Sequence record: OP251154.1 | Origin: Escherichia phage TR2 | Length of the DNA stretch: 45,171 bases | Strand: one strand, 5' to 3' | Shown here: one piece after another, positions 322 through 39,423 of the stretch | Layout: the number at the start of each line of letters is the position of its first letter | Position numbering within the stretch: position 1 is the stretch's first letter | Position numbers and translations under genes: made by a program | The notes under the pieces: model-generated | What the model was told of the DNA's origin: nothing | Seen by the model: the letters and a program-made list of their open reading frames with translations, nothing else | Databases searched by the model: none

Positions 322-397
322 TGGTGTTCCGCGCTGGACTCGAACCAGCAACTAAGACTTAGGAGGTCTTTGCGTTATCCTGTTACGCCAGCAGAAC
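322..397 (-). tRNA. tRNA-Arg (anticodon CCU, reads AGG)
   Basis: Manual cloverleaf on minus strand: acceptor GTTCTGC/GCGGAAC (one G-U), D-stem GCGT/ACGC with GG in loop, anticodon stem AAGAC/GTCTT, loop CT-CCT-AA, T-arm GCTGG-TTCGAGT-CCAGC, 3' ACCA. Confidence 0.8.
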
Positions 398-2008: not shown

Positions 2009-2051
2009 ATTATGCCGGATTTCTCCGGCGATTGTTTAGCAATTCGTGCTA
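2009..2051 (-). promoter_or_regulatory. operator/-10 promoter cassette (TAGCA-N5-TGCTA, 22-nt spacer, CATAAT)
   Basis: Plus 2037-2051 TAGCAattcgTGCTA; -10 at plus 2009-2014; leader CATCGACAACACGA then ATG at 1977. Confidence 0.55.
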
Positions 2052-2531
2052 TTGTCCATTCAGGAGTAATTTAGCTTCCCGATAAAACTCCATCGCCGCC
2101 TCAACCTCTTCCTCGCTGTACCGCAAGTGGTATGGTAGTCTACTAGGATGCTTACCTTCGTAGACCTTGAAGTTAGGCTCCCAACACTCATTGAGTATTG
2201 CGGGGTGAACATAAACCTTATCGCCAATTAGACATGTAACATTCATCTTGTCGAGCTCTGGGATTAGCTTGTCCTTGATGAGCAACATCACTCCATTACG
2301 CCCAACAAAAGGCTTAACCTTTCGAGCTCCTTCATATACAGACCTGACACCAACCACTCCTTTCCCGTTAACTCCCATCTTCCTGATGATTTTAATTAGC
2401 ACACCAAGCTCATCACCTGAGTACACATCTGACGTATCAATCGAACCCCAGAATGGCGTTGACTGACGATACCCATTTGCATTTATTACGATTCTGACTG
2501 GCGAAAGTCCATCTTGCCTGGCGATATTCAT
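2049..2531 (-). CDS. internally truncated paralog of the P-loop replication protein at 5132..6715
   Basis: N-terminus (RIVINANGYRQSTPFW) and C-terminal ~70 aa (NGKGVVGVRSVYEGARKVKPF...TCLIGDKVY) match the ends of the 527-aa protein; central Walker-A region absent. Confidence 0.6.
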   Translation of the reverse strand: MNIARQDGLSPVRIVINANGYRQSTPFWGSIDTSDVYSGDELGVLIKIIRKMGVNGKGVVGVRSVYEGARKVKPFVGRNGVMLLIKDKLIPELDKMNVTCLIGDKVYVHPAILNECWEPNFKVYEGKHPSRLPYHLRYSEEEVEAAMEFYREAKLLLNGQ

Positions 2532-2572: not shown

Positions 2573-3061
2573 TTATTTAATCTCCTCAATAATCAAACGA
2601 TAATCTTTAATTGCTTTCATTGCTGCTGCGAGCGCTTCACCTTCATACTCCGATAGGTCTGGCATGACTTTCGATATCTTAGCCTTGAATTCAGTTATTG
2701 CCTCCACCTTGATTGCGTCATTGGTCTTCTTCCTGATACCAATGTTGGCAGTTCCAGGGATCAGTTTGATAACCAGCCTCTTGCCATCTGATAGCTCTGT
2801 CACGCCGAATTGGCTTTTGCCGCTATCTTCATCATAGTAGTGAGTCGCCTTCATACCTGCGTCTCTCAACTCAGGCATGCGAGCTGTTGTGTTGTAGATG
2901 TATGAGCTCTTAAGCTTCTTAATGGAACCATCTTCACTGCCAATAATGCTTTCAATTTTCCTTAGTGAAACGCTGAATTGCTTATCTTCAGATTTTAGAG
3001 CCTGTTTTACCATCTCGCGAATCACTTGACCCAATGTTGCTTTCTCATTCATGTTTATCAC
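2573..3061 (-). CDS. hypothetical protein (162 aa)
   Basis: ORF track; sigma70-like TTGATT-17-TATGAT upstream on minus strand (around plus 3080-3110). Confidence 0.55.
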   Translation of the reverse strand: MINMNEKATLGQVIREMVKQALKSEDKQFSVSLRKIESIIGSEDGSIKKLKSSYIYNTTARMPELRDAGMKATHYYDEDSGKSQFGVTELSDGKRLVIKLIPGTANIGIRKKTNDAIKVEAITEFKAKISKVMPDLSEYEGEALAAAMKAIKDYRLIIEEIK

Positions 3062-3322
3062 TCCTCTCGTTTAGGTTGAATCCATCATATATCGACTTAC
3101 ACACGTAATCAAGTGTAATTTTTGGTAACTTTTAGGTGTGGTTACGCGAAATGGCATCCTAGCCAAGCTATAGCTAAATGTAGTTTGTGGTAACGCCTGT
3201 AACGCATAAATTGGGTGGGGTTGCCCAATACTGGCTATTTCTTCCATAAAATTGCAGATATGTACTCTGATAGGAAAAAACATATATATAGCAGAAGAGC
3301 ACCAGTTACATGACTTACATAC

Positions 3323-3350
3323 AATAATAATAATAATAATAATAATAATA
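3323..3350. repeat. (AAT)9 microsatellite followed by (AT)7 at 3359-3372
   Basis: Perfect trinucleotide repeat read directly; produces the spurious poly-Ile ORF 3252..3509. Confidence 0.9.
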
Positions 3351-3396
3351 GAAAGAAGATATATATATATATTAAGTACTTATAGTGTAAGTCTAG

Positions 3397-3422
3397 GCGT
3401 AGCTTCGCGTAACTCGCGTAAC
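3397..3422. promoter_or_regulatory. three phased iterons GCGTAGC/GCGTAAC/GCGTAAC
   Basis: Starts at 3397, 3407, 3416 (10- and 9-bp spacing); more GTAACGC/GGTTACG sites at 3126-3210 and 3453-3463. Confidence 0.5.
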
Positions 3423-3542
3423 GATAGTGGTTGGCTTACATCGCGCTACGCCGGTTACGTGTATGCGGCAAAATGGCTCGGCCAGAATAAAAATCAACTT
3501 GTATGGTAGTCCATCCACCATTCATTCACCCTCACATCAATA

Positions 3543-3636
3543 ATTGCAAATTCTGCAACAATCAAAAAAATCATTGCATCAGATGCAATATTGCTATATG
3601 TGCAATAATGAGATGAATCATTGCAATAACTGCAAT
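3543..3636. promoter_or_regulatory. array of three ATTGCA-N5-TGCAAT palindromic operator-like sites
   Basis: Sites at 3543-3559 (ATTGCAaattcTGCAAC), 3573-3589 (ATTGCAtcagaTGCAAT), 3620-3636 (ATTGCAataacTGCAAT); same GCA-N5-TGC core as the promoter operator. Confidence 0.5.
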
Positions 3637-3655
3637 AATACATAAACCCAACGAA

Positions 3656-3699
3656 TAGCACTTTTTGCTAATGACAAACATTGGTAACGAGACCATAAT
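3656..3699 (+). promoter_or_regulatory. operator/-10 promoter cassette for the plus-strand early operon
   Basis: TAGCActtttTGCTA at 3656-3670, 23-nt spacer, CATAAT at 3694-3699, leader CATCAACAACGAGGAGAG, ATG at 3727. Confidence 0.55.
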
Positions 3700-3726
3700 G
3701 AATCCATCAACAACGAGGAGAGAGAT

Positions 3727-3924
3727 ATGAAACTTAAAGACGAAGCGTATGAGCAGCTAAAGCAGGAATGCGCTCTGATTGGGTTGAACGAGATGTACAG
3801 CGATATGGTTTTGCGCGGCAAGATTGATATTGACCTCGCTAAGCAATTCCAGTCAGATGATGAGTATCTATGTTGTGATGGCTTGGGCTGTGACGAATGT
3901 TTACCCTGGCAAGGAATGAGATGA
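3727..3924 (+). CDS. hypothetical protein (65 aa)
   Basis: ORF track; first gene of plus-strand operon. Confidence 0.5.
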   Translation: MKLKDEAYEQLKQECALIGLNEMYSDMVLRGKIDIDLAKQFQSDDEYLCCDGLGCDECLPWQGMR

Positions 3925-4115
3925 TGAAAGTTAAGTGCTTAAATAATCTTAATGATGGAACCTGGGAATTTAGAAACGGAAAGCATTACATTTATGATGA
4001 AATTTATGGTTACGTAGTTGGTGACAACTTCAAACCAGTTTACTGCTACATTGATGATGGACGTGTCATTGCAGCAATTAAAAATAGGCTTATTTTTGAA
4101 ACAGTAGAAGGTTAG
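3921..4115 (+). CDS. hypothetical protein (64 aa)
   Basis: ORF track frame; start moved to ATG 3921 (ATGATGA overlap with upstream stop, AAGGAA SD). Confidence 0.5.
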   Translation: MMKVKCLNNLNDGTWEFRNGKHYIYDEIYGYVVGDNFKPVYCYIDDGRVIAAIKNRLIFETVEG

Positions 4116-5131: not shown

Positions 5132-6715
5132 ATGTTTGATTTCAACGAAGATAAACTATCTGTTGAACAAGTTATGGCGATTGCCGCGACCGACAACCTC
5201 CCACCGCTTCGCGTTGCCATTAATGCAAATGGCTATCGGCAGTCTCAATCATTCTGGAAAACACCTGTGGAGATTGACGCAGGTAATGACAAGTACCCTG
5301 TAATATCTCTAGGCAATGACATTGATGTTGTTGGTAAGCTCTCGGCAAATATTGCTCGCTCAGTTCAGTTCCCAGAGTCATCAGCATACATGCACTTTTT
5401 GGGTTGTGTGTCCGCTGCGATGCTAGGGCGCTTTACTGTTGAGTATCACGGAACCCAGCAGCCAACATCGCTTTACGTGGTAACTAGCCAGCCGCCATCT
5501 ACTGGTAAGTCAGCCATTAACTCTCTGTCAATTGCGCCAATGATTGCTGAGACTGAGCGTTTGAACGAGGTGCGTAAACGTGACCGCAAAAAGATTATGG
5601 CTAAGCTGTCTGCGCTAGCAAAAGAAATGAAACAGGAGAAGTCACCATCTGAGATGGCTTCACTGTTTGAGGAGAAGGAAGATTTAGAGGAAAAGCTCGA
5701 GAAGCTGTGCGATATCGTATTCCCGGTCTCAGATACTACGCCAGAAGGTCTTGCACGAATCAACAACCGCCAGGGTAACTTTGCGGTCATCTCGGATGAG
5801 GCAACAAGCGTCAACTCATTATTGGGCATGACATACGGTGATGGTTCCAAGAAAACGAACAGCGAGCTTGTACTTAAAGCGTGGGATGCTGGTAACGTAT
5901 CTATTGCCCGCGCTAACGCAGAAAACAACATGAGTTTCGTGGCAATGGGGTGCATCTCTGTAATTGCTCAGGATGAAACAATCAATGCGATTATGAATGC
6001 TGGTGCGCGTGGTATTGGTGTTTCCGAGCGTTTCCTTCTGGTGCGTGAAAAGTCATTTCTTGGAGACCGCGTGTTTGTTGATGAGAATGGCGATTCAACA
6101 TACGAGGCTATTGATGATGGTCTTAAAGCAGACTATTTCCGTCTCGTTCATGAAATTATGAATGAAGTTGAAGTGAAACTGACAGTAAGTGCGTCATCCA
6201 TGCGCTACCTTAACCGAGCTCGCCAGGAAATGGAACCGCATCTTGGTGATGGCGGTAAATATTCCCACACGATGTTACGTGGTGCTCTTGGTAAATTTGA
6301 TAAGCAAGCAATCCGTATTGCCTCAGTATTGCACGTTATTCGCAACTGGTTCGCACCGGCAGGGTCGAGTCCGCAGAAATCAAGAGAGATTGAGCTTGAA
6401 ACAATGCAAGAAGCGGTTATGATTTTCCACGAGTTAAGCAAGACTTATTTGTCGTCCGCTAGTGCTGCTGGTCATGCTGGTGATAATGCTGAAATGAATA
6501 AGCTGGTTGATATCCTGATTAAGCAAGGTAAGAATGGGAAGGGTGTTGTTGGCGTTCGCTCACTGTATGAAGCAGCACGCAAAGTTAAACCTTTTGAAGG
6601 ACAGGCTGGCGTAATGACTCGCATCAAGGACCACTTGGTTCCTATGCTTGATGAGAAAAACTATACATGCCTGATTGGTGATAAGATTTACATTAATCCG
6701 CGATTGTTGGGGTGA
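5132..6715 (+). CDS. putative replication initiator/helicase-like P-loop NTPase (527 aa)
   Basis: Walker-A-like TSQPPSTGKSA; has its own promoter cassette; N- and C-terminal segments duplicated in 2049..2531. Confidence 0.6.
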   Translation: MFDFNEDKLSVEQVMAIAATDNLPPLRVAINANGYRQSQSFWKTPVEIDAGNDKYPVISLGNDIDVVGKLSANIARSVQFPESSAYMHFLGCVSAAMLGRFTVEYHGTQQPTSLYVVTSQPPSTGKSAINSLSIAPMIAETERLNEVRKRDRKKIMAKLSALAKEMKQEKSPSEMASLFEEKEDLEEKLEKLCDIVFPVSDTTPEGLARINNRQGNFAVISDEATSVNSLLGMTYGDGSKKTNSELVLKAWDAGNVSIARANAENNMSFVAMGCISVIAQDETINAIMNAGARGIGVSERFLLVREKSFLGDRVFVDENGDSTYEAIDDGLKADYFRLVHEIMNEVEVKLTVSASSMRYLNRARQEMEPHLGDGGKYSHTMLRGALGKFDKQAIRIASVLHVIRNWFAPAGSSPQKSREIELETMQEAVMIFHELSKTYLSSASAAGHAGDNAEMNKLVDILIKQGKNGKGVVGVRSLYEAARKVKPFEGQAGVMTRIKDHLVPMLDEKNYTCLIGDKIYINPRLLG

Positions 6716-12492: not shown

Positions 12493-14483
12493 AACAATTC
12501 TCCAAAATTCTTAAAAGCGATTATATCTTTACCTTTGCCGTTTTTTCTATGTGTAACCTGCACTGGTGCGCGGAACTTATCTACGTTCGCCATAATCATT
12601 CTCGCATTGCGAAGTCTGCCAATTCTTGTGGCTTCAGCGCGATTCTCTATATGAGCAAGGCAGAAGTTCTTCCATAGCACGCTGCAAACTCGATGGTCAG
12701 ACTCGGGGTTGAAGAATTCCCATGCATTAAACCGATCTCCGTTATGAGCCATGATATTGTACTTAACAACAATTCCGGTTTGATTCTTACTTAAGCCAAC
12801 TTGAAAATCATAAACAAGAAGGTAATCACCACGACGATACATCTTACCTGTAAGGTTAGCATTGGGGTCTTTAAGCATCTCTCCGCACTCTCGACAGACC
12901 TTCGCTGCTATATCATTGCGAGTCCCGCACCCTTTTTTGATAATAGCCTTTGTCTGCAGGTCTGTAATATCTTCACAAACTGTAAAAGTAAAGAAGTGCT
13001 CACATCTCTTTCCGTCAATCTTATTTCCGCATCTACGAGCAAAAGGCGAATTCTCGTATGAGCAAATTGGGCACACTCGAACCTCTGAATCACCATTGCG
13101 TGATGACTTAAACTTCTCGGCCTGAATCTCTTCAATTATTGGATCAAAGTAAAGTTCAGCCATATCATCAAGTGCGCCAGCAAAGTCCAGGACTAAGTGG
13201 TCATCCTTTTTCATACCAATTTCAATATGTTTCTTCTTGAGAATTCGCATTCCACGACCAAGAAGCTGAATCATTAATGTCAGGCTTCCAATCTTGCGGA
13301 GTATGACACTTGTGTCCCACGGAGGCACCGAAACGCCTGTGGTTAAGCATCCAATCTGAAAAATAATCTTGTACTTTCCGGTCTGGCATTCATCTAGAAT
13401 TTCCCTTCTCTTCTTCTCACCAGTGGAATCAGTGATTATCGCGTAAGGATAACCATCGGGTAGAGCAGCAGCCGCTTCATCGCAGTGCATTTTACCAGCG
13501 CAAGTTACCAGTGCGGCGTTACGTGTTTCAAGTATTTTGATAACGAACCCCATTATCTTTTGTGTCATCGTCTGGTTTTCGTGAATCTTTGCAGCCATTG
13601 CATCCATTTCTTTTTTGCTGAAATCCTTAACGCCATCACTTCCATCAGGTGCAAACTCGCTAAGGTCATAACCCAAATCACCAACCTCACCGTAAACAGT
13701 TGGAACAACGAATCCCAAATCAACCAGGTAACTGGTCGGAACTTGCATTACCGTCTTGCGCCAGAAGCCACGAATATTTGGGTTACTAACTACAATGTGG
13801 TCGTTGTTACGATACGGGCTACCAGTCAAGCCGAATATACGGAGCTCGCGACCATACTTCTCTTTGCAGCGGCGCTTCATTTCAGTGATGATTAGTGTGT
13901 ACTGCGCACGACCAGTTCCAAGCAATCCGGTATTCACTCCATCCTTGAAAACCATTTCGCCTTTCTTGGTGCTCATTTGCTCAAATGTCTCTTCGTTCTC
14001 TTCAGCTTCTACGATATCCATGTGGTCCACCATGTGTGCCTCATCTATTGCGATAACCGCAGGAACATAGTCACCAAGACCCTTAAACAATCCATTGGCA
14101 GCCGTTCCTTCACTAGCCACTATGGTTGGGTAATAAACTGATTTAACGTTAAGGCCAGCGCAATATACGCTATTACGAATGCCAAAGCTGCGAAGTTCTT
14201 CAGCGTTCTGACTGATAATTTCAGACTGGCGAGAAAGTACCATATAAGGAAGGCCAAGTTGCTCCATGCGTTTACCAATCATGGCAATAATGATTGTCTT
14301 GCCAGCCGATACAGACAGGTCTGCGATGAACGGAGCTTCGTACTTAGCAATATTCTTGCCGATTTGGTCGAATGTCACGCACTGGAATGGATACGGCGTA
14401 ATATCTCCAAACTGATAGTCTCTCTGAATCTGCTTAATCTTTTCTTGGTCAAAGTTTGCCACTAAGCGTTCTACTGGAAGCAT
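12489..14483 (-). CDS. SF2 ATP-dependent helicase with Cys-rich zinc-ribbon insert
   Basis: Walker A SVSAGKT, DEAH box IDEAHM, Cys cluster CPICS...CGNK...CRECG. Confidence 0.8.
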   Translation of the reverse strand: MLPVERLVANFDQEKIKQIQRDYQFGDITPYPFQCVTFDQIGKNIAKYEAPFIADLSVSAGKTIIIAMIGKRMEQLGLPYMVLSRQSEIISQNAEELRSFGIRNSVYCAGLNVKSVYYPTIVASEGTAANGLFKGLGDYVPAVIAIDEAHMVDHMDIVEAEENEETFEQMSTKKGEMVFKDGVNTGLLGTGRAQYTLIITEMKRRCKEKYGRELRIFGLTGSPYRNNDHIVVSNPNIRGFWRKTVMQVPTSYLVDLGFVVPTVYGEVGDLGYDLSEFAPDGSDGVKDFSKKEMDAMAAKIHENQTMTQKIMGFVIKILETRNAALVTCAGKMHCDEAAAALPDGYPYAIITDSTGEKKRREILDECQTGKYKIIFQIGCLTTGVSVPPWDTSVILRKIGSLTLMIQLLGRGMRILKKKHIEIGMKKDDHLVLDFAGALDDMAELYFDPIIEEIQAEKFKSSRNGDSEVRVCPICSYENSPFARRCGNKIDGKRCEHFFTFTVCEDITDLQTKAIIKKGCGTRNDIAAKVCRECGEMLKDPNANLTGKMYRRGDYLLVYDFQVGLSKNQTGIVVKYNIMAHNGDRFNAWEFFNPESDHRVCSVLWKNFCLAHIENRAEATRIGRLRNARMIMANVDKFRAPVQVTHRKNGKGKDIIAFKNFGELL

Positions 14484-14524
14484 TTTAAATATCCTGATAG
14501 TTCTTTAGTTCGTTGCATTGATGT

Positions 14525-14566
14525 ATAATAACAGCCATCGAACCCATTGTTTAACAAAAAGTGCTA
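14525..14566 (-). promoter_or_regulatory. operator/-10 promoter cassette for helicase operon, inside a divergent region
   Basis: Plus 14552-14566 TAACAaaaagTGCTA; minus -10 TATTAT at plus 14525-14530 (21-nt spacer) overlaps a plus-strand TATAAT at 14524-14529. Confidence 0.5.
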
Positions 14567-14579
14567 TTGAGGTAATGAG

Positions 14580-15062
14580 ATGTGTGAAATCGACAAGCGA
14601 ACTATTAACGGCAATAACGGAACCGTGCGCACAAAAGACAAAAAGCAACGCAAACGACCATCAGGCTACTACGTATTGAAAGATGAGGTAAAGGCTGGGC
14701 TACGTGCTCGCCTGGAGATGGTTCTTGATTTCTACGGTACAAAGGCGAACATCGCAAAGCAGTTAAATGTGTCCAACCAAGCTGTATCGGAATGGTTTAA
14801 CCGCGGTATGATTTCGGCTCGAGGGGCTCAGCGAGCACATAATGCGTACAAGCGAAATAAGGAGGGATTTCGAGCTACATTCTGCCGACCAGACCTGCAA
14901 TTCGACGGAAACGGAAAACCGCTAACACTTCGATGCAAGAAGCGCCATATGCTTCGCGTAGTTACCGATGCAGAACTAGCAACAAAGCCACCCTGTCGAC
15001 CATGGCGAAAGAATAAGGCCGCTAACGAGGCAGCGCGAAAAGCTAAAGAGCAAGGGAAATAG
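14580..15062 (+). CDS. putative HTH DNA-binding protein (Cro/YdaS-like)
   Basis: HTH-like segment KANIAKQLNVSNQAVSEWFNRG; basic C-terminal half; first gene of plus operon. Confidence 0.5.
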   Translation: MCEIDKRTINGNNGTVRTKDKKQRKRPSGYYVLKDEVKAGLRARLEMVLDFYGTKANIAKQLNVSNQAVSEWFNRGMISARGAQRAHNAYKRNKEGFRATFCRPDLQFDGNGKPLTLRCKKRHMLRVVTDAELATKPPCRPWRKNKAANEAARKAKEQGK

Positions 15063-15102: not shown

Positions 15103-15128
15103 GCCTTTATTGTTTATGGAGGGTGTAT

Positions 15129-15653
15129 ATGAAAGTTAATGATTTCGTTTATGTTGACGATGAATTTAAATTAAGATGGAAGAGTCGAGGTGCCGAACTC
15201 TTTAAAACAGATAGGTCATCAAAGATCTGGAATAGTAGGTTTGCAGGCAAGAAATGTGGATACATTAGGGATGACGGTTATCTTTCTTTTGAGTTCAAAG
15301 GACGAGCATACAGAAATCACAGGGTGATATGGGAGATTGTAACTGGTAATGAAATAGGTGATAACATGGAGATCGATCATATAGATCATAATACAACAAA
15401 CAACAATATTGAAAACCTTAGAGTTGTTGACAGGAAAGAGAATTGCAAAAATCAACCCATGATGCCCCACAACTCAAGTGGATTCACAGGTGTTTACTGG
15501 TGGTCAACGAGAAACAAATGGAGAGCCCGCATTGAATGTGATGGCAAGGTGAAAACAAAATCATTTGAAGACTTTAATGATGCTGTCGAGTGGAGAAAAG
15601 AAATGAACATAAATCTTGGCTTTCACAAGAATCATGGGGATAAGAAAAAATGA
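15129..15653 (+). CDS. HNH homing endonuclease with AP2 domain
   Basis: HNH motif IDHIDHN...IENLRVV and AP2-like SGFTGVYW...W.A.I; start set at ATG 15129 after GGAGGG. Confidence 0.8.
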   Translation: MKVNDFVYVDDEFKLRWKSRGAELFKTDRSSKIWNSRFAGKKCGYIRDDGYLSFEFKGRAYRNHRVIWEIVTGNEIGDNMEIDHIDHNTTNNNIENLRVVDRKENCKNQPMMPHNSSGFTGVYWWSTRNKWRARIECDGKVKTKSFEDFNDAVEWRKEMNINLGFHKNHGDKKK

Positions 15654-16573
15654 AAACTTATGATAAGAAAGAAGTATTGCCAAGAATGCTGGGGATGTGG
15701 AAAGATGCTCTAATAAATATCTGTGATGCACCTGCGAACTTCTTTAATGGCAAGCACCATCCATGCCTATACTGTGGAGGTCGGGATAGAGCTAGATGGA
15801 CTGATAACCTATCTATAAAAGGTGATGGCGGAAATATATGCAATCAGTGTGGGAACGACACTGGGATAGGATTAATGATGAAGCTTACTGGAATGAACTA
15901 CAGTGAGGCTATAAATACGCTTGGTGACTGGTTAAACCTGGTTCCAGTTGAGGTTGTAGCTAAAGCAAACAAAAGAGCATCAAGAACATCACCATACAAA
16001 ATGGGCGCTCAGATTGACCACGAAAGATGCTTAGAGATAATGGAAAGGACGGAAAGAGTAGAATCAACTCCACTCAGTACATACGAGGGTATCTATAGCG
16101 AGTTCGGCTTTGATGTTGGCAGGACGAAATCAGGAGAACTAATACACGCAGTGCCGTGCTTTATGGCTTATAGTGACGGCGTGTCAGAAGAAATGTGCAA
16201 TGTGATGTTTATCAATGAGGAAGGGGATGTTAGTTATGCTGCAAAAGATTATACTCGCCAATCTGTGGCTGTTATTGGTTCCCTTAAGGATAGTGAGTAC
16301 GCTTATCTGGTCGATAATTGGATTGATGGTGTTCGCGTTCATCTTGCTACTGGCAGTCGCTGCGTTCTTGTTTGCCACTCCAGCTACAACATGGAAATGG
16401 TTGCTTATGCGCTTAGAAACTACAAGTTACGCGTCGCTTGCACTCGCCACTCTTTTGATTTACTCGCCGTTGCTGATGATCGCAATCTTGATGTTGTAAT
16501 GCCAAATGATGATAATTTTTTCAAGTCAGGAATAAGAAAGCGCATATACAAGGCAAGCGAATTACTAGACTAA
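15650..16573 (+). CDS. putative DNA primase (zinc-ribbon N-terminus)
   Basis: Cys4 zinc ribbon HPCLYCGG...CNQCG at N-terminus; replication-module context. Confidence 0.5.
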   Translation: MKTYDKKEVLPRMLGMWKDALINICDAPANFFNGKHHPCLYCGGRDRARWTDNLSIKGDGGNICNQCGNDTGIGLMMKLTGMNYSEAINTLGDWLNLVPVEVVAKANKRASRTSPYKMGAQIDHERCLEIMERTERVESTPLSTYEGIYSEFGFDVGRTKSGELIHAVPCFMAYSDGVSEEMCNVMFINEEGDVSYAAKDYTRQSVAVIGSLKDSEYAYLVDNWIDGVRVHLATGSRCVLVCHSSYNMEMVAYALRNYKLRVACTRHSFDLLAVADDRNLDVVMPNDDNFFKSGIRKRIYKASELLD

Positions 16574-20931: not shown

Positions 20932-21426
20932 TCAAAATAAACCAAGTTGGAATCGTGCACCAACTTCCTCAATTAGCTTCCTAGCTTCCTTCTTCTGCCG
21001 CTTTCTTTCGGTCATTAGCTTGCTGCCTACTTTTCCGATCTGTTCTGAGTCATTGCATAATTCCGAAACCGCTTTTGTTGCCGCATTGAAATCACCAGTT
21101 AGTGCAATGGCTTTCACTTTACTAATTACATCCAAATCCTTAACTGCTTCTTCTAGTTGTTCCCAACGCTTAATGATCGCATAACGCATTTGAGCATTGT
21201 ATCCAGAAACCAGCGTTATTGTCAGGTCTTTTGGTAGATTGTAAATCTTCAATTTCTTGCCGTTTGGTCCATCATTAACAAAACTCAAAAATGAGTTCTG
21301 CTCTAAATTCAATGACTTAAGCATATTCTCTAAATCCCTGATGACGTTATTATGTCTCTTCCCTGTTAGTTCAGCAATCTCTCGGCTGCTCATTGTTTCA
21401 ACTTTCAGTTCTGTAATCTCTTTCAT
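20932..21426 (-). CDS. Rha-family phage regulatory protein
   Basis: SSREIAELTGKRHNNVIRDLENM matches the Rha N-terminal signature; start set at second Met with AAGGTGA SD. Confidence 0.55.
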   Translation of the reverse strand: MKEITELKVETMSSREIAELTGKRHNNVIRDLENMLKSLNLEQNSFLSFVNDGPNGKKLKIYNLPKDLTITLVSGYNAQMRYAIIKRWEQLEEAVKDLDVISKVKAIALTGDFNAATKAVSELCNDSEQIGKVGSKLMTERKRQKKEARKLIEEVGARFQLGLF

Positions 21427-21427
21427 C

Positions 21428-21625
21428 TCAGTCACCTTTAACCTTAACAATCTTAATAGCTTTCAAATCTTCTTCAGTGAAGTACCCGGTCAGACGTTCC
21501 TTGGCTTCTTCCTTTGTTTCAAATCTGTCTGCTTCAGATTTATGGACTGTATATCCAGCGGGTCCGCCAAAGTAGCAATCTCCGAATAGTGCGTTGTTTT
21601 TCTCTTTAATAATGAAATATGGCAT
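21428..21625 (-). CDS. hypothetical protein (65 aa)
   Basis: ORF track. Confidence 0.4.
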   Translation of the reverse strand: MPYFIIKEKNNALFGDCYFGGPAGYTVHKSEADRFETKEEAKERLTGYFTEEDLKAIKIVKVKGD

Positions 21626-21629
21626 ACGT

Positions 21630-22037
21630 TTATCCTTTGATGATTTTCACGTGTTCTGATGTTGTCTTTTCTATCCTTGCGCCTGTTTGCTCCCATTGTT
21701 TACCGTATGATAATTCGCAAAACCTAACAGCCATATCATGTGTAAGGAATATAGCCACGGGTGAATACGTTGGTAGTATAACCGTATGAGCATTCAATTT
21801 ATCAAACTTCTTCATCTCTATCTCTCTATGGTTGCGTGCTTTCGATGTGGTAATGATGCCGCATGCTTGCCACTCAGTCCAATTGGTTTCGCCAATCGTT
21901 GAATCAAGTATACGCGTATAATTCTGTAACCACGTGTAGATATGTGCATTGGTTACGTTTTTCACCACTTCAGCCCAGCCATAGCTCAATGTAAAAGGTG
22001 CGTATATCGTGTATACCGATTTTAGCGGAGGGTGCAT
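21630..22037 (-). CDS. hypothetical protein (135 aa); start uncertain
   Basis: ORF track; no SD before the annotated ATG, so it may be shorter. Confidence 0.35.
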   Translation of the reverse strand: MHPPLKSVYTIYAPFTLSYGWAEVVKNVTNAHIYTWLQNYTRILDSTIGETNWTEWQACGIITTSKARNHREIEMKKFDKLNAHTVILPTYSPVAIFLTHDMAVRFCELSYGKQWEQTGARIEKTTSEHVKIIKG

Positions 22038-22110
22038 GGGTATGGGTGGCGATCAATACTGTATAAAATCACATGATATAAAAATTATAACCGGAACACT
22101 CCAAAACAGT

Positions 22111-22277
22111 AGTTACATGATATACACAGTAATATATATAATAATAATAATAAAAGTAAAAGGTTGATATATATAGATATTTTAATGTAACTATGGCGTA
22201 ACTTTGCGTAACTGGGCGTATACGATTTCCCGCGGATGCATATGGTATACATCGAGTTACATCGGTTACGTGTAACC
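22111..22277. repeat. noncoding module B (homolog of module A at 3305..3466)
   Basis: TTACATGA, (AT)4(ATA)4, GATATATATAGATATTTT, iterons, ACATCG, palindrome GGTTAC-GT-GTAACC at 22264-22277. Confidence 0.7.
22196..22222. promoter_or_regulatory. three phased iterons GCGTAAC/GCGTAAC/GCGTATA
   Basis: Starts at 22196, 22206, 22216 (exact 10-bp spacing). Confidence 0.5.
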
Positions 22278-22304
22278 ATGATTTATGGGTAGACTTGAGA
22301 TAAA

Positions 22305-22347
22305 TAGCACGATTTGCTAAAGACAAGCTGCAATATTTGGGCATATT
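22305..22347 (+). promoter_or_regulatory. operator/-10 promoter cassette (weak -10)
   Basis: TAGCAcgattTGCTA at 22305-22319, 22-nt spacer, CATATT at 22342-22347. Confidence 0.45.
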
Positions 22348-22445
22348 GTGCGCATGACGGCAATGGTGCTGCCATCCAACCTAAATTTCAGGCTGGGAAC
22401 CAAAGTGATGGCTCAGATTTGAGCCATGAAAAAACCAGAAGAGAG

Positions 22446-22589
22446 ATGAAAATGAACCTAACTCTACTAAATGAAGATGTAAAAATGAACAGTTATCAGT
22501 TTTTGAATGAAGTTATCAACCCAGCGAGGTTAGTTGCCGGTGAATCTGATGTTCGGCACAATGACTTTGTTGAGAGGATAGAGGATTAG
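22446..22589 (+). CDS. small hypothetical protein (47 aa)
   Basis: Internal Met of ORF 22314..22589 after purine-rich SD; the 5' part of that ORF overlaps the promoter. Confidence 0.3.
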   Translation: MKMNLTLLNEDVKMNSYQFLNEVINPARLVAGESDVRHNDFVERIED

Positions 22590-22673
22590 CTTGAGGGGTT
22601 TGAGTTTGACTACGAAAGTTTCGTAATCAAAAGTGAGGGGAGAGGGGGTTATAGAAAGTCAATCAACTCACCA

Positions 22674-23129
22674 GTGCTTAATATGGAACAGATGCTTCTT
22701 GTTGGAATGCGTGAGTCAAAGTCTGTTCGCCGTGCGGTTCTTAATAAGCTTAAAGAGATGCAGTCCACCATCAACAAACAAACGGAAGTAATCAGCCAGA
22801 TGGTGAGTATTGATGAGCTAAAAGAAGCGCGCGTGATGCTTGGTGTGGCTAATGCGCAGAACGCTCACCTTAGCCAGCGAATCGTTGCGGAGCAGCGAAT
22901 CAATGAAATCCTCCTTATGGATAAGAACATTGACGAGAAGCTTGACCTTCTCGCTTGTGAAGCTCGGCAGTCTTGGGTATCACGTTCCGATGAAATGGAA
23001 GCAAGGTTTAGGTATGAAGCACAATGTTTCGCTCTTAAAGAGAAGACTGACGCACTGGCAGGATTGATCGAGAATAAACTTGGTATCGACATTAAGCCGT
23101 TGCTGGAAAGAAGCAGCACGAATAGCTAA
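22674..23129 (+). CDS. hypothetical coiled-coil protein (151 aa); start uncertain
   Basis: ORF track (GTG 22674 or ATG 22683); C-terminal codons SSTNS-stop are the next operator. Confidence 0.5.
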   Translation: MLNMEQMLLVGMRESKSVRRAVLNKLKEMQSTINKQTEVISQMVSIDELKEARVMLGVANAQNAHLSQRIVAEQRINEILLMDKNIDEKLDLLACEARQSWVSRSDEMEARFRYEAQCFALKEKTDALAGLIENKLGIDIKPLLERSSTNS

Positions 23130-23514: not shown

Positions 23515-23757
23515 ATGACTAACTTAATCAAACTTTCAATCATCGCCGCAGCAGCAATCATGATGGTGGGTTGCTCTTCTGGTCCTCGTCCTGACGGTTG
23601 GTGTGCAACGCAAGCAAACGGAGTATGCGTGGCTAAATGGAAAGGTGGAGTGGTTCTACCGGCTGGTGAAGTTGATGTGCGCTACGACGGCATTAAGATG
23701 AATGGTGGCGGTTACAGCGGGTCTGTTGCTGACCACGGCTCTAAGGAGTGGAAATAA
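23515..23757 (+). CDS. small lipoprotein (Cor/Llp-like superinfection-exclusion candidate)
   Basis: Signal peptide with lipobox (IMMVGCSS); ~80 aa; start set at ATG 23515 after AAGGA; overlaps start of next gene. Confidence 0.55.
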
Positions 23758-24713
23758 TGGGTCAAGGTATCTACATAAACCTTAATGATGGAAGGCCGGC
23801 AATGGAGATAACATCAGGTTTGAGAATTCCAAATGTGACAGGTTCAGTTCCAACGTCAGGTTTCAACTCAGCAAATGGAGGTTTAACTTTCGGTCTTACA
23901 CAAACTAGTGGATCAACTGCATTCATGCTTCCAATTAAAGCGGTTGATGTAGTTGTTTTTGGCGTAGTGCCTGAGGTTTATTACCTAAATGGATTCCAGC
24001 GTGTATCAGACTCACAGGGAAGGATAAATGTTAGTAACTTCAACGGTGCTAGAGGAAGGTTGATAAACTTCTCAGGTAACTGCCTTGAGATAACGGGTGC
24101 TGCAAGTGGGCAGGGAATTTTGGTTGCAAACTCAACTGACTTTGTTTCCATAACAACAAACTCAAGGATACTTACCGCTCAATATGTAGGGACTGTTACA
24201 GTAAATGGTAGTTACAAACTTCCAGTTACTGGAGTTCCTTTTGGGAGGTGGAGTGACCCGAATGTAACTGTTGAATTTGATGGGGACAGCATACTTTGCA
24301 GAAGCAACTCATATACTGGAATTGATAATGTTGGCGCATCTGTAACTATAGATCTCGTTATATTCAATAATACAGCTCCAGTTGGCGGACCTGGAATAAC
24401 TATAGTAAACCCAGCTGGTCAGGTTGTTTTCTCGACAGTTAAGCGTCCATTTGTTCTTGGTGGATTTCTACAGTTAACAAATTCATTCCAGTCAATAGGT
24501 GGTGGGTACTTCCCAATACTTAGAACCGGAGCATACACTCGGGTAACTGGTGGCTATAACAACCTCCGGTATAAAGGTGTCGTTATGTCTGGTGGCTCAG
24601 TTAGGAGTGAGTTCGGAAGCGTTATTGGTAACTACTCAACGAAAACAGGAGCACGGTTCCCATTCAACACAAATATAGCAATGTCACTCCCATACCTTCC
24701 AAACATGTATTAA
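23757..24713 (+). CDS. candidate receptor-binding protein (beta-rich, 318 aa)
   Basis: G/S/T/N/V-rich composition typical of fibre or RBP domains; coupled to the lipoprotein, convergent with gpJ-like gene; start at ATG 23757 after AAGGAG. Confidence 0.45.
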   Translation: MGQGIYINLNDGRPAMEITSGLRIPNVTGSVPTSGFNSANGGLTFGLTQTSGSTAFMLPIKAVDVVVFGVVPEVYYLNGFQRVSDSQGRINVSNFNGARGRLINFSGNCLEITGAASGQGILVANSTDFVSITTNSRILTAQYVGTVTVNGSYKLPVTGVPFGRWSDPNVTVEFDGDSILCRSNSYTGIDNVGASVTIDLVIFNNTAPVGGPGITIVNPAGQVVFSTVKRPFVLGGFLQLTNSFQSIGGGYFPILRTGAYTRVTGGYNNLRYKGVVMSGGSVRSEFGSVIGNYSTKTGARFPFNTNIAMSLPYLPNMY

Positions 24714-29859: not shown

Positions 29860-30615
29860 TTAGTTCTGATTATTCTTAGCTTGTAAACTTGCGGAGGCAC
29901 ACCCCCCAAATGATAGCTGGTTGTTTTCACCAAACCTCAACTTACAGGCATCAACAGTTCCGGCGCAAAAATCTAACCCAGGGTCATCAACCGGATTATT
30001 GTCTTTGTCGAAGTAGCGATTCCCAGCATAATCGCAACCGTTGCCACTGCGATACCATCCACGAGAAGCAAAGTAACATACTGACTGGACTAGCCTCGCT
30101 GGAATATAGATACCATCCATATCAATTGGGCTAGATAACTCAAAAGAGGCAGTCTTGTAGTCAACCTGCTTTGGACGCTCAATAAAGTAAACCATCTTAC
30201 GATAATCGCCATCTGCAATGCTGCCATCATCATTGATATTATCCCTGATAGTAACCCAGATTGTTACCTTCGCCTGAACCATGCCATTGTACTGACGGAT
30301 TAGCGAGGAAACAGCCTGGTCAACGTTTGATAAAGTTAGCGTGAGCTTGTTTGCTTTTCCATCAGATGTAAGGTTGATGCCGCTAATGCCGAAAGGTCTG
30401 GCTCCATACTCTTCGCCACGAAATGTAATTGTCTTGGCTGGTAGTGGCTGACCAGATGCCTGGGCTTGCATGATTTCTTCAGGCGTGTATGAGATATTCT
30501 CCCCATGAAACCTGTAAACCCTTGCGCCGAACTTGCTGCCATCAACCTCAATAAGCGTAACCACTTCACCAGGGAAAAGTGATTGAAGTTGGTTTTCAAA
30601 CTTTACACTTGCCAT
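29860..30615 (-). CDS. minor tail protein (lambda gpL-like)
   Basis: Synteny TMP-M-L-K-I-J; size close to gpL; C-terminal Cys cluster. Confidence 0.65.
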   Translation of the reverse strand: MASVKFENQLQSLFPGEVVTLIEVDGSKFGARVYRFHGENISYTPEEIMQAQASGQPLPAKTITFRGEEYGARPFGISGINLTSDGKANKLTLTLSNVDQAVSSLIRQYNGMVQAKVTIWVTIRDNINDDGSIADGDYRKMVYFIERPKQVDYKTASFELSSPIDMDGIYIPARLVQSVCYFASRGWYRSGNGCDYAGNRYFDKDNNPVDDPGLDFCAGTVDACKLRFGENNQLSFGGCASASLQAKNNQN

Positions 30616-38478: not shown

Positions 38479-39423
38479 TTAGGCAAAGGTAATTCCTTTG
38501 ATAGCTGCCACTGTAAGAGGGCGATATAAAATCAAACCTGTCGCCTTAGAGGTTACAGGGAAGCGGAAGTGAAGATCACGAGGCTGACCAGGTAAAACGT
38601 TTGTAACTTCCGGAATCTCGATGCTCATGTTGAGCGGATCCTTTTCAAACGCCAGCGCAGCTTTACCGCCAGCACCATCGTAGTTATCCAGGACCTGCAT
38701 AAAGCGCAGGGTTACACCTGGGTTGTTACGAGTAAACAACTCGCCATAGCTCAGGGTTGTATTATCAACAAGGCGCTGCATTACACGGCGAGCGGAAGCT
38801 GGCAGCAGAATGTCAGTTACATGGTGGAAGCCCTGTGTGCTGGTTTCTACAGCATCAATCATTGCGGTAACGTCGTTAACCGCGTTAATTGGATTGCTCC
38901 AGTTTGGAGTTGCAACAACGTTGTTGATGTTCGGCTGGTTAAATACGCTTACGATGCCGTGAGGTGCAGAGCCAGACCATACCAGTTTATCAAGCAGGTT
39001 GTCGTGAGCTTCAAAAGCCAAAGCCTGTTTGCGAGCGGACAGTGACTGACCAGTAGCAGCGCCAACTTTAATCTCATCAACTGAGATCATAAACGCATTA
39101 CCGAAGCGGAATACTTTACCCTGCTTCTCGGTCATGAAAGCATCAACCATCGGCAGGTCGTCAGAGTAATCAGCGATGATCTGAGCAATACCAACACCAT
39201 CGAACTCATTGTATTCGAAGTATTTCGCGTGACCAGGGATTTCGTTGGTTACTGGGAAGATGTTGACAACTGAGTTGTCTGCGTATTCTTTTTCGTAAGC
39301 GCGATTCAGTGATGCGGTTAACTGCTTAACGGTCCAGATACCAGCAGCATCAGCCTTATCTACGCCCATTTGCTCTAGGTGAGCGGTGATTTTTGCTTGT
39401 TCTGCATCAAATTTAATGGCCAT
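38479..39423 (-). CDS. major capsid protein
   Basis: 314 aa in canonical position after portal, protease/scaffold and decoration candidates. Confidence 0.7.
   Translation of the reverse strand: MAIKFDAEQAKITAHLEQMGVDKADAAGIWTVKQLTASLNRAYEKEYADNSVVNIFPVTNEIPGHAKYFEYNEFDGVGIAQIIADYSDDLPMVDAFMTEKQGKVFRFGNAFMISVDEIKVGAATGQSLSARKQALAFEAHDNLLDKLVWSGSAPHGIVSVFNQPNINNVVATPNWSNPINAVNDVTAMIDAVETSTQGFHHVTDILLPASARRVMQRLVDNTTLSYGELFTRNNPGVTLRFMQVLDNYDGAGGKAALAFEKDPLNMSIEIPEVTNVLPGQPRDLHFRFPVTSKATGLILYRPLTVAAIKGITFA

Follow-up and report, generated by a model that had tools for sequence, protein, structure and literature searches.

The 45,171-nt record of Escherichia phage TR2 (OP251154.1), all of which was analyzed here (the window), is the near-complete genome of a T1-like coliphage (Drexlerviridae, Braunvirinae), and its gene order agrees with that of T1, Rtp, and Rogue1. 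It carries two related noncoding elements, modules A and B, located about 19 kb apart, which are the subject of this work. Module A separates two blocks of genes. The leftward one comprises DUF7174 and small early genes and continues, on the permuted map, into those for the terminase, head, and tail; the rightward one is early and has a DUF3987 helicase among its products. Module B is found between a leftward operon coding for Rha (20932 to 21450), exonuclease VIII, a recombinase, and SSB and a short rightward KilA/cor operon. An earlier sequence-only reading of the window had placed both copies in divergent intergenic regions, which was confirmed, and the motifs that it listed for the two modules were all found where it had put them.

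The core of module B (22111 to 22277, plus strand) consists, by direct reading, of a left motif, an AT tract, a set of phased repeats, and a conserved right block. The motif at the left edge is AGTTACAT (22111 to 22118, plus strand), and the slightly longer AGTTACATGA is present at 22111 to 22120 and again at 3304 to 3313 in module A. It holds a −35-like GTTACA (22112 to 22117), with a TATAAT (22137 to 22142) 19 nt further on. The AT tract (22130 to 22190) contains a (TA)n/(AAT)n microsatellite and is a candidate DNA-unwinding element (DUE). Its right border is formed by an inverted copy of AGTTACAT (22185 to 22192, minus strand), within which TGTAAC is invariant in an alignment of 13 phages. 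This inverted copy, which reads ATGTAACT, is at the same time the first of four phased direct repeats (22187 to 22223, plus strand) and is located just upstream of the other three: GTAACT at 22187, 22198, and 22208 and GTATAC at 22218, with spacings of 11, 10, and 10 bp. Three iterons had been described before at 22196, 22206, and 22216. Their positions and spacing hold, but GCGTAAC is found only at the first two, the third being GCGTATAC, and the repeats number four. The arrangement GCGTA-N5-GCGTA-N5-GCGTA occurs once in the window, versus 0.01 expected. The heptamer GCGTAAC was also observed at 382, within a tRNA gene (325 to 397, minus strand; Rfam, 59.3 bits), and at 437.

To the right of the repeats, a conserved spacer that is absent from module A (22224 to 22254) contains CCGCGG (22230 to 22235) and a second GTATAC (22245 to 22250). 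It is followed by AGTTACATCGGTTACGTGTA (22255 to 22274, plus strand), the most conserved block of the module. Within this block, GGTTACGTGTA is common to both modules, its exact matches in the window being solely those at 3453 to 3463 and 22264 to 22274. The 24-mer ATACATCGAGTTACATCGGTTACG was found as one copy in each of 10 IMG/VR contigs. The perfect palindrome GGTTAC (22264 to 22269)-GT-GTAACC (22272 to 22277), to which attention had been drawn before, does exist, but it is neither unusual nor conserved: the window contains 11 perfect 6+2+6 palindromes versus 12.1 ± 3.3 in shuffled sequences, and Rtp, T145P1, TH21, and all Rogunavirinae lack its right arm. We therefore rejected it as a defining feature of the module. 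A candidate DnaA box, ATATACACA at 22120 to 22128, agrees by eye with 8 of the 9 consensus positions and was dropped because it is not conserved in Rogunavirinae or ACG-M12.

The core of module A (3304 to 3463, plus strand) repeats the same order of elements in the same orientation: AGTTACAT at 3304, CTTACAT at 3314, an (AAT)n/(TA)n AT tract at 3321 to 3384, phased repeats at 3387, 3399, 3409, and 3418 (spacings of 12, 10, and 9 bp), CTTACATCG at 3435 to 3443, and GGTTACGTGTA at 3453 to 3463. The unmasked modules align by BLASTN with 70.3% identity over 175 columns (E value of 4e−14), and about one-third of this alignment is microsatellite, as would be expected if the resemblance were a chance one between AT-rich, low-complexity intergenic sequences. 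This explanation was refuted by pairwise alignment after masking of the microsatellites. The local score of A versus B was then 57, compared to 16.1 ± 2.3 in dinucleotide shuffles (maximum of 29; 0 of 2,000 reached the observed score), and the right halves on their own scored 48 versus 15.4 ± 2.5 (0 of 2,000). When masked B was scanned over all windows of the genome, the best non-self hits were all in module A (53, 48, 48, and 45), with the rest scoring 26 or less. The same architecture is kept in five Drexlerviridae lineages, and the probability that we leave to chance is negligible. Thus, the earlier description of B as a diverged direct copy of A stands.

The paralogy is wider than described before, since it includes the fourth phased repeat and a noncoding extension to the left of each core. 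The extension of A (3084 to 3303) has GTTAC at 3123, 3140, 3188, and 3197 and a leftward σ70-like promoter, TTGATT-N17-TATGAT, from 3112 to 3084 on the minus strand (TTGACT in relatives). The extension of B (21812 to 22110) is conserved and noncoding. GTTAC is present in it at 21924 and 21951, and from 22089 to 22084 its minus strand reads TATAAT, which is conserved as well. Both contain a 22-nt block, AGCCnAGCnATAGCTnAATGTA, at 3161 to 3182 and 21972 to 21993, respectively. The two copies are identical at 19 of 22 positions (score of 29 versus 17.8 ± 2.3 in shuffles, reached by 1 of 2,000). On the minus strand, the block reads TACATTGAGCTATAGCTGGGCT, and it contains the 10-bp palindrome AGCTATAGCT. 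Many relatives, from several genera, keep it in both regions, upstream of the leftward promoters, and it is a second cis element that A and B have in common.

Duplex stability was evaluated by a nearest-neighbor scan with segment sizes of 40 to 100 bp. At all sizes, A and B were the two least stable segments of the window (z of 4.6 to 5.8, the next being 3.45 to 3.85). The minimum, at 3324 to 3384, falls in module A (z of 5.8), and module B is the second least stable 60-bp segment (free energy, dG, of −55.6; z of 5.3). In each of six genomes (TR2, T1, AHP24, 12469II, T145P1, and TH21), the two least stable 60-bp segments were again A and B, with z values of 4.7 to 5.8 versus 3.1 to 3.75 for the next best. 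Those of T1 are located at 214 to 274 and 30009 to 30069. Low stability is therefore a property that is kept where the sequence is not.

In each module, a tract of 60 to 80 bp with ca. 90% A+T is bracketed by inverted AGTTACAT motifs, and the four short direct repeats (GTAACT/GCGTAAC), one helical turn apart, are followed by two GTTAC sites in opposite orientation. With seven copies in 200 bp, GTTAC[AG] forms at B the densest cluster of the genome (P of ~7e−8), and A is among the next densest. The density of GTTAC in TR2 is 13.5 to 18.3 per kb in the A and B regions versus 2.7 per kb genome-wide, and that of GTTACA in the B-equivalent region of T1 is 13.3 versus 0.5 per kb. The A and B regions of phage TLS contain no GTTAC; they are enriched instead in GTTCAC (~5 versus 0.7 per kb) and GGAACA (3.4 to 4.9 versus 0.8 per kb). 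Therefore, the repeat motif is lineage specific yet common to A and B, being GTTAC in TR2 and T1 and GTTCAC/GGAACA in TLS. All of these phages have Escherichia coli as their host. Because the motif switches jointly in both modules between lineages, a single phage-specific binder would serve both sites, and the comparison points to a protein that is probably encoded by the phage itself. The divergent region between the helicase and primase genes (14483 to 14580) was considered as a third module and rejected, as it has no GTTAC sites. Secondary clusters of GTTAC (four to five per 200 bp) were observed in coding DNA at about 24176 to 24376, in a 321-amino-acid (aa) open reading frame (ORF; 23748 to 24713), and at 38551 to 38900, in a 314-aa ORF (38479 to 39423) that, judging from its position, is probably the major capsid gene.

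With module B as the query, blastn retrieved 134 phage records, which were T1-like by name or taxonomy where checked. Across 13 phages (Braunvirinae, Rogunavirinae, and Nouzillyvirus), module B is 75 to 92% identical, with 82% identity per column on average. Blocks without any variation in this alignment are AGTTACA, GATATACA, the (AAT)n run, TGTAAC, the three GCGTA cores, CGCGG, and ATACATCGAGTTACATCGGTTACG. Copy number in related phages was checked, and two copies were present: in all genomes examined, A and B are found at two divergent intergenic regions that are syntenic, and this holds also for T1 and TLS, which are beyond the reach of blastn yet show the same architecture at the same positions. 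The equivalents of module A keep the order of elements with greater divergence than those of B. The GTAAAAGGTTGATATATATAGAT of B is present in the left half of A in four phages (12469II, T145P1, IME542, and Sd1), which suggests that gene conversion may have taken place between the two copies. Variation is found in the phased repeats, where TR3 and Rtp have GTAAA-N5-GTAAC in the place of the GTAAC-N5-GTAAC-N5-GTATA of TR2. On the minus strand of T1, at about 355 to 375 in its A-equivalent region, ACTGTATATATAAACAT is presumably a near-consensus LexA-box-like sequence (CTGT-N8-ACAT, by eye); it is not found in the window.

The region around module A (2900 to 4000) is 100% identical to that of phage TR3. 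That around module B (21500 to 23000) is ~88% identical to TR3, its closest relative being CY1 (92.5%). All megablast matches begin at about 21875, with no near match to the left of this point, so module B is kept where the sequence adjoining on the left is not. The TR2 genome is a mosaic, with a breakpoint at the border of the conserved noncoding region. To the right of module B, the KilA/anti-repressor-like gene is represented by two ORFs on the plus strand (22446 to 22589 and 22674 to 23129). In CY1, it is a single gene of 227 aa, and a frameshift, decay into a pseudogene, or an error in sequencing could account for the split.

The rightward operons next to both modules start with a putative promoter cassette, ATAGCACGATTTGCTAA at 22304 to 22320 (plus strand), 27 bp from B, and ATAGCACTTTTTGCTAA at 3655 to 3671 (plus strand), ~190 bp from A. 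Thus, the proposal that each module is located just upstream of such a cassette applies to B but not to A. The cassette corresponds to the published 21-nt direct repeat of T1-like phages, aaATAGCACnnnTTGnTAAAA (PMC11447400). It was found as ATAGCACnnnTTGnTAA at 20 sites of the window versus 1.5 expected, all of them pointing along transcription (among others, 2036, 3655, 4465, 12060, 14551, 15059, 19352, 19906, 22304, and 35184) and just upstream of a −35-like (A)AGACA. In most relatives, the cassette, as ATAGCACnnnTTGCTAAAGAC, directly abuts module B; TR2, TR3, CY1, 12469II, and ESCO41 have a 25-bp insert there. Like the modules, this repeat is a family-wide repeated intergenic element, with one copy 27 bp downstream of B. 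It is nevertheless a separate element, since all 20 matches to the 21-nt consensus, ATAGCACnnnTTGnTAAAA, fall outside the modules, the nearest being those at 22304 and 3655.

Between module A and its cassette there is another conserved noncoding region (3470 to 3654), outside the A/B paralogy, with ATTGCA/TGCAAT/GCAAC repeats and the palindrome GCAATATTGC. Position 1 of the T1 record, which is the physical left end and the start of the 2.8-kb terminal repeat, maps to the equivalent repeats (about 3520 to 3650 of the window), and many GenBank records are linearized within the equivalent of 3470 to 3650. This region is probably the pac region, and it has no counterpart at B.

Regarding replication proteins, the window codes for a DUF3987 replicative helicase (5132 to 6715, plus strand) and a DnaG-type primase with a zinc ribbon (15650 to 16573, plus strand). 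DUF3987 proteins are MCM-like superfamily 6 (SF6) helicases with a C-terminal winged helix (PMC4889955). Profile searches with the helicase and with its C-terminal domain matched no solved structure. Upstream of the primase is a Cro-like helix-turn-helix (HTH) protein annotated as a transcriptional regulator (14580 to 15062, plus strand; phrog_2856, with Pfam P22_Cro below the cutoff), which is our candidate binder of the repeats. The residues of its recognition helix are SNQ in TR2 and T1, TRQ in AHP24, and NLK in TLS. The HTH regulator and primase genes have an HNH endonuclease gene (15123 to 15653, plus strand) inserted between them, at a position that is empty in T1 and AHP24. A 160-aa ORF (2049 to 2531, minus strand; phrog_7327) is a truncated paralog of the helicase that lacks the ATPase core. 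Its residues 1 to 30 match the N terminus of the helicase and residues 37 to 113 match the C-terminal domain (61% identity; E value of 2e−29). It is located ~0.8 kb from module A in TR2, 12469II, TH21, and AHP24, is truncated in T145P1, and is absent from T1. Its AlphaFold model as a stand-alone protein is of low confidence (predicted local distance difference test [pLDDT] score of 48). This paralog could regulate the helicase or compete with it.

An origin was sought in T1-like genomes in two recent papers, neither of which reported one (PMC11447400; PMC7718038), and we did not find the paired module described in the searchable literature. To judge from their sequence, the modules are the best available candidates for the replication origins of the T1-like family. 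They combine an unwinding element (the least stable DNA of six genomes) with at least three direct repeats in helical phase beside it, except in the B-equivalent of T1, and the phage encodes replication machinery of its own, namely, the DUF3987 helicase and the DnaG-type primase, with the HTH protein upstream of the primase. The internal spacing of the modules is kept while their distances to promoters vary, and therefore an autonomous element suits them better than an operator array. The element is most likely an origin of the iteron-plus-unwinding-element type present in two copies. We assign a probability of about 0.45 to the reading in which A and B are two paralogous autonomous elements with the build of replication origins, each joining phased repeats to an unwinding element, between divergent early promoters. 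A narrower proposal, in which they form a two-site T1-like origin system (two origins, or an origin plus a crr-like partner) whose lineage-specific GTTAC/GTTCAC repeats are read by the Cro-like HTH protein as initiator, is more doubtful. Among the roles that the sequence-only reading had listed (dual origins, recombination substrates, or paired regulatory sites), origins fit best, and recombination enters only as an evolutionary side effect.

As origins, the modules might operate as follows. A sequence-specific protein encoded by the phage would occupy the phased GTTAC-type sites along the same side of the helix; the candidates are the Cro-like HTH protein and, with a lower likelihood, the winged-helix tail of the DUF3987 helicase. 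The AT tract would be opened by this binding and by the negative supercoiling that arises where the early operons diverge, and the phage helicase and the DnaG-type primase would then be loaded there. Transcription from the weak putative promoter of the left edge, GTTACA-N19-TATAAT, may contribute to activation. Modules A and B could each be an origin, or one could be an origin and the other an auxiliary cis site.

Several observations weigh against the modules being origins. The B-equivalent of T1 lacks the phased GCGTAA repeats, and the similarity between the A and B regions of this phage is marginal outside the AT tract (28 of 1,000 shuffles). Regarding the binder, the recognition helix of the HTH protein parallels the change from GTTAC to GTTCAC across four sequences only, and the control region of its own gene has no GTTAC site. 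In the winged-helix tail of the helicase, TLS is closer to TR2 than T1 is, and this tail was rejected as the binder of the repeats, since its variation does not follow the change of motif. GC skew tracks the direction of transcription and is uninformative on origins; it was rejected as an origin marker, as it merely mirrors gene orientation. The literature search retrieved no paper on a T1-family origin or transcription start map and no marker frequency, two-dimensional (2D) gel, or origin-cloning data for these sites. In addition, very AT-rich DNA with repeated sites is also typical of strong phage early promoter/operator regions, which is where both modules are found. Three canonical σ70 promoters have been predicted in TLS that, by their coordinates and assuming synteny, fall in the A-equivalent, B-equivalent, and primase/helicase divergent regions, with P01 and P51 placed in those equivalent to A and B.

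These last points favor early-promoter control, the main rival explanation, which we consider less likely than an origin. The modules would then be curved or UP-like AT DNA combined with operator arrays, by which a regulator of the phage, for instance the Cro-like HTH protein, would turn both divergent early operons on or off in concert; the paralogy would exist since both operons need the same control, and the GTTACA-N19-TATAAT of the left edge would itself be a promoter. Both modules are located in the two large divergent control regions of the genome, the left-edge sequence is conserved in the 13-phage alignment, and the AHP24 record annotates a predicted σ70 promoter at the equivalent position of module B. 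The covariation of the recognition helix with the motif, within the limit of four sequences given above, fits a regulator as well, and a lineage-specific motif common to A and B would suit an operator set equally well. However, the left-edge sequence is a weak match to the consensus, and promoter-like sites within the module are no more frequent than in shuffled sequences (4 hits versus 4.2 ± 1.7), with the microsatellite giving −10-like hexamers in many registers. The leftward promoters are outside the core (~190 bp away in A and ~250 bp in T1), and the rightward ones belong to the separate ATAGCAC cassette. Nor is the distance from module to promoter fixed, as the 25-bp indel at B and the 27 bp of B versus the 190 bp of A indicate. 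A tract of 60 to 80 bp that is the least stable in six genomes exceeds the needs of a promoter, and the lack of GTTAC in the control region of the HTH regulator itself counts against this explanation, too. The two functions are not mutually exclusive because neighboring transcription often activates phage origins.

Other explanations have much lower probabilities. Short phased repeats are typical of pac sites (SPP1 and P1), and module A adjoins the region in which the T1 left end and the starts of many GenBank records fall, so its repeats might be bound by the small terminase subunit. We consider this quite improbable, since the T1 end falls within the ATTGCA/GCAAC repeats to the right of A and not within the module, and nothing similar exists at B. 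If another pac site existed 19 kb from the first, packaged ends should form two series, and none such have been reported for T1 or TLS (PMC11447400). Even less probable is a small noncoding RNA, a structured leader, or a small protein gene. The high conservation of a noncoding stretch, the ORFs that some records annotate across the module (TR3 WVX92954.1; phrog_35664), and the one pair of the alignment with a compensatory change would agree with it. Against this, Rfam gave no match for the module even at E values up to 5, and its folding energies are ordinary (z of −0.78 and −1.22 for the plus and minus strands, respectively). RNAalifold on the 13-phage alignment gave a covariation term of +0.11, with 1 of 23 pairs compensated and two sequences breaking it. 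The ORFs across module B are of low complexity (poly-Y/I/L) and are broken by 1-nt indels, stops, and frameshifts in close relatives, and in T145P1 and 12469II, stop codons or a frameshift also disrupt the ORF that some records annotate in the extension to the left of B. A coding sequence was thus rejected for both, the phrog_35664 match reflecting annotated ORFs and not coding evidence. The repeats also recall boxes for host response regulators of the OmpR/PhoB family (e.g., CpxR or OmpR), which would couple early functions to envelope signaling. GTTACA resembles what we take to be an OmpR half-site, and GTAAH-N5-GTAAH occurs four times in the window versus 0.86 expected, with three of the four in the A or B regions. 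The repeats of TR2, TR3, and Rtp given above come close to the motif of CpxR, GTAAA-N5-6-GTAAA, but this is so loose that E. coli has more than 10,000 putative sites (PMC9600279). The match is moreover partial (GTAAC-N5-GTAAC). The motif of a host factor should stay constant; TLS, which has the same host, replaces GTTAC by GTTCAC/GGAACA in both regions, and this counts against CpxR or OmpR boxes, to which we give a very low probability. Finally, blastn against 5,426 E. coli genomes detected no similar sequence, which also counts against such boxes, and a host origin or host mimicry was rejected on these grounds.

Returning to replication origins, known systems offer partial parallels. The origins of phage SPP1 carry the same repeated boxes, bound by the phage initiator G38P, beside AT-rich DNA, and its oriL is located inside the initiator gene, unlike the TR2 modules, which are both intergenic. 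SPP1 is, like TR2, a lytic siphovirus of ~44 kb with pac packaging, and its two origins, oriL and oriR, 32.1 kb apart, provide a precedent for two distant origins (PMC3561973). The modules and the SPP1 origins are not similar in sequence, the proteins that initiate replication, load the helicase, and unwind DNA in SPP1 are unrelated to the T1-like set, and origin function has been demonstrated in SPP1, whereas it is proposed for the TR2 modules. The ori and crr of the satellite phage P4 are reportedly two cis elements kilobases apart with the same iteron and a single replication protein. P4 crr is a duplicated 120-bp unit, and the alpha protein is a single primase-helicase-winged-helix fusion; primase and helicase are on separate proteins in TR2. 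For the T1 primase, the annotation gives a similarity to alpha proteins of the P4 type. The A-equivalent of TLS has TGTTCAC twice, presumably resembling the P4 iteron, which we take to be TGTTCACC.

Origins of the iteron-plus-DUE type, such as those of lambda and iteron plasmids, share with the modules about four direct repeats in helical phase, an AT-rich melting region, and an initiator of their own, for which TR2 has a candidate. Their repeats are 19 to 22 bp long versus cores of 6 to 8 bp in TR2. The TR2 modules differ from them also in the inverted copies of the motif that flank the AT tract and in being present in two copies; lambda ori is found inside gene O. In the primary origin of T7 and in oriF and oriG of T4, a promoter reads into an AT-rich unwinding region, which is reminiscent of the possible GTTACA-N19-TATAAT followed by the AT tract in TR2. 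However, those origins depend on promoters for phage-specific or phage-modified RNA polymerases and are not known to have phased iterons, and the TR2 promoter is a weak match.

T1 belongs to the seven classic T phages, and phages of its type are notorious contaminants of laboratories and fermentations. The modules provide exact coordinates, of less than 200 bp each, at which to look for the start of their replication. If they are origins, they would explain the recruitment of an MCM-like DUF3987 helicase and a primase by these phages, would give a function to a misannotated "regulator," and might serve as parts for phage engineering and as targets for contamination control. If they are early-promoter control regions instead, a shared switch of two early operons would have been defined.

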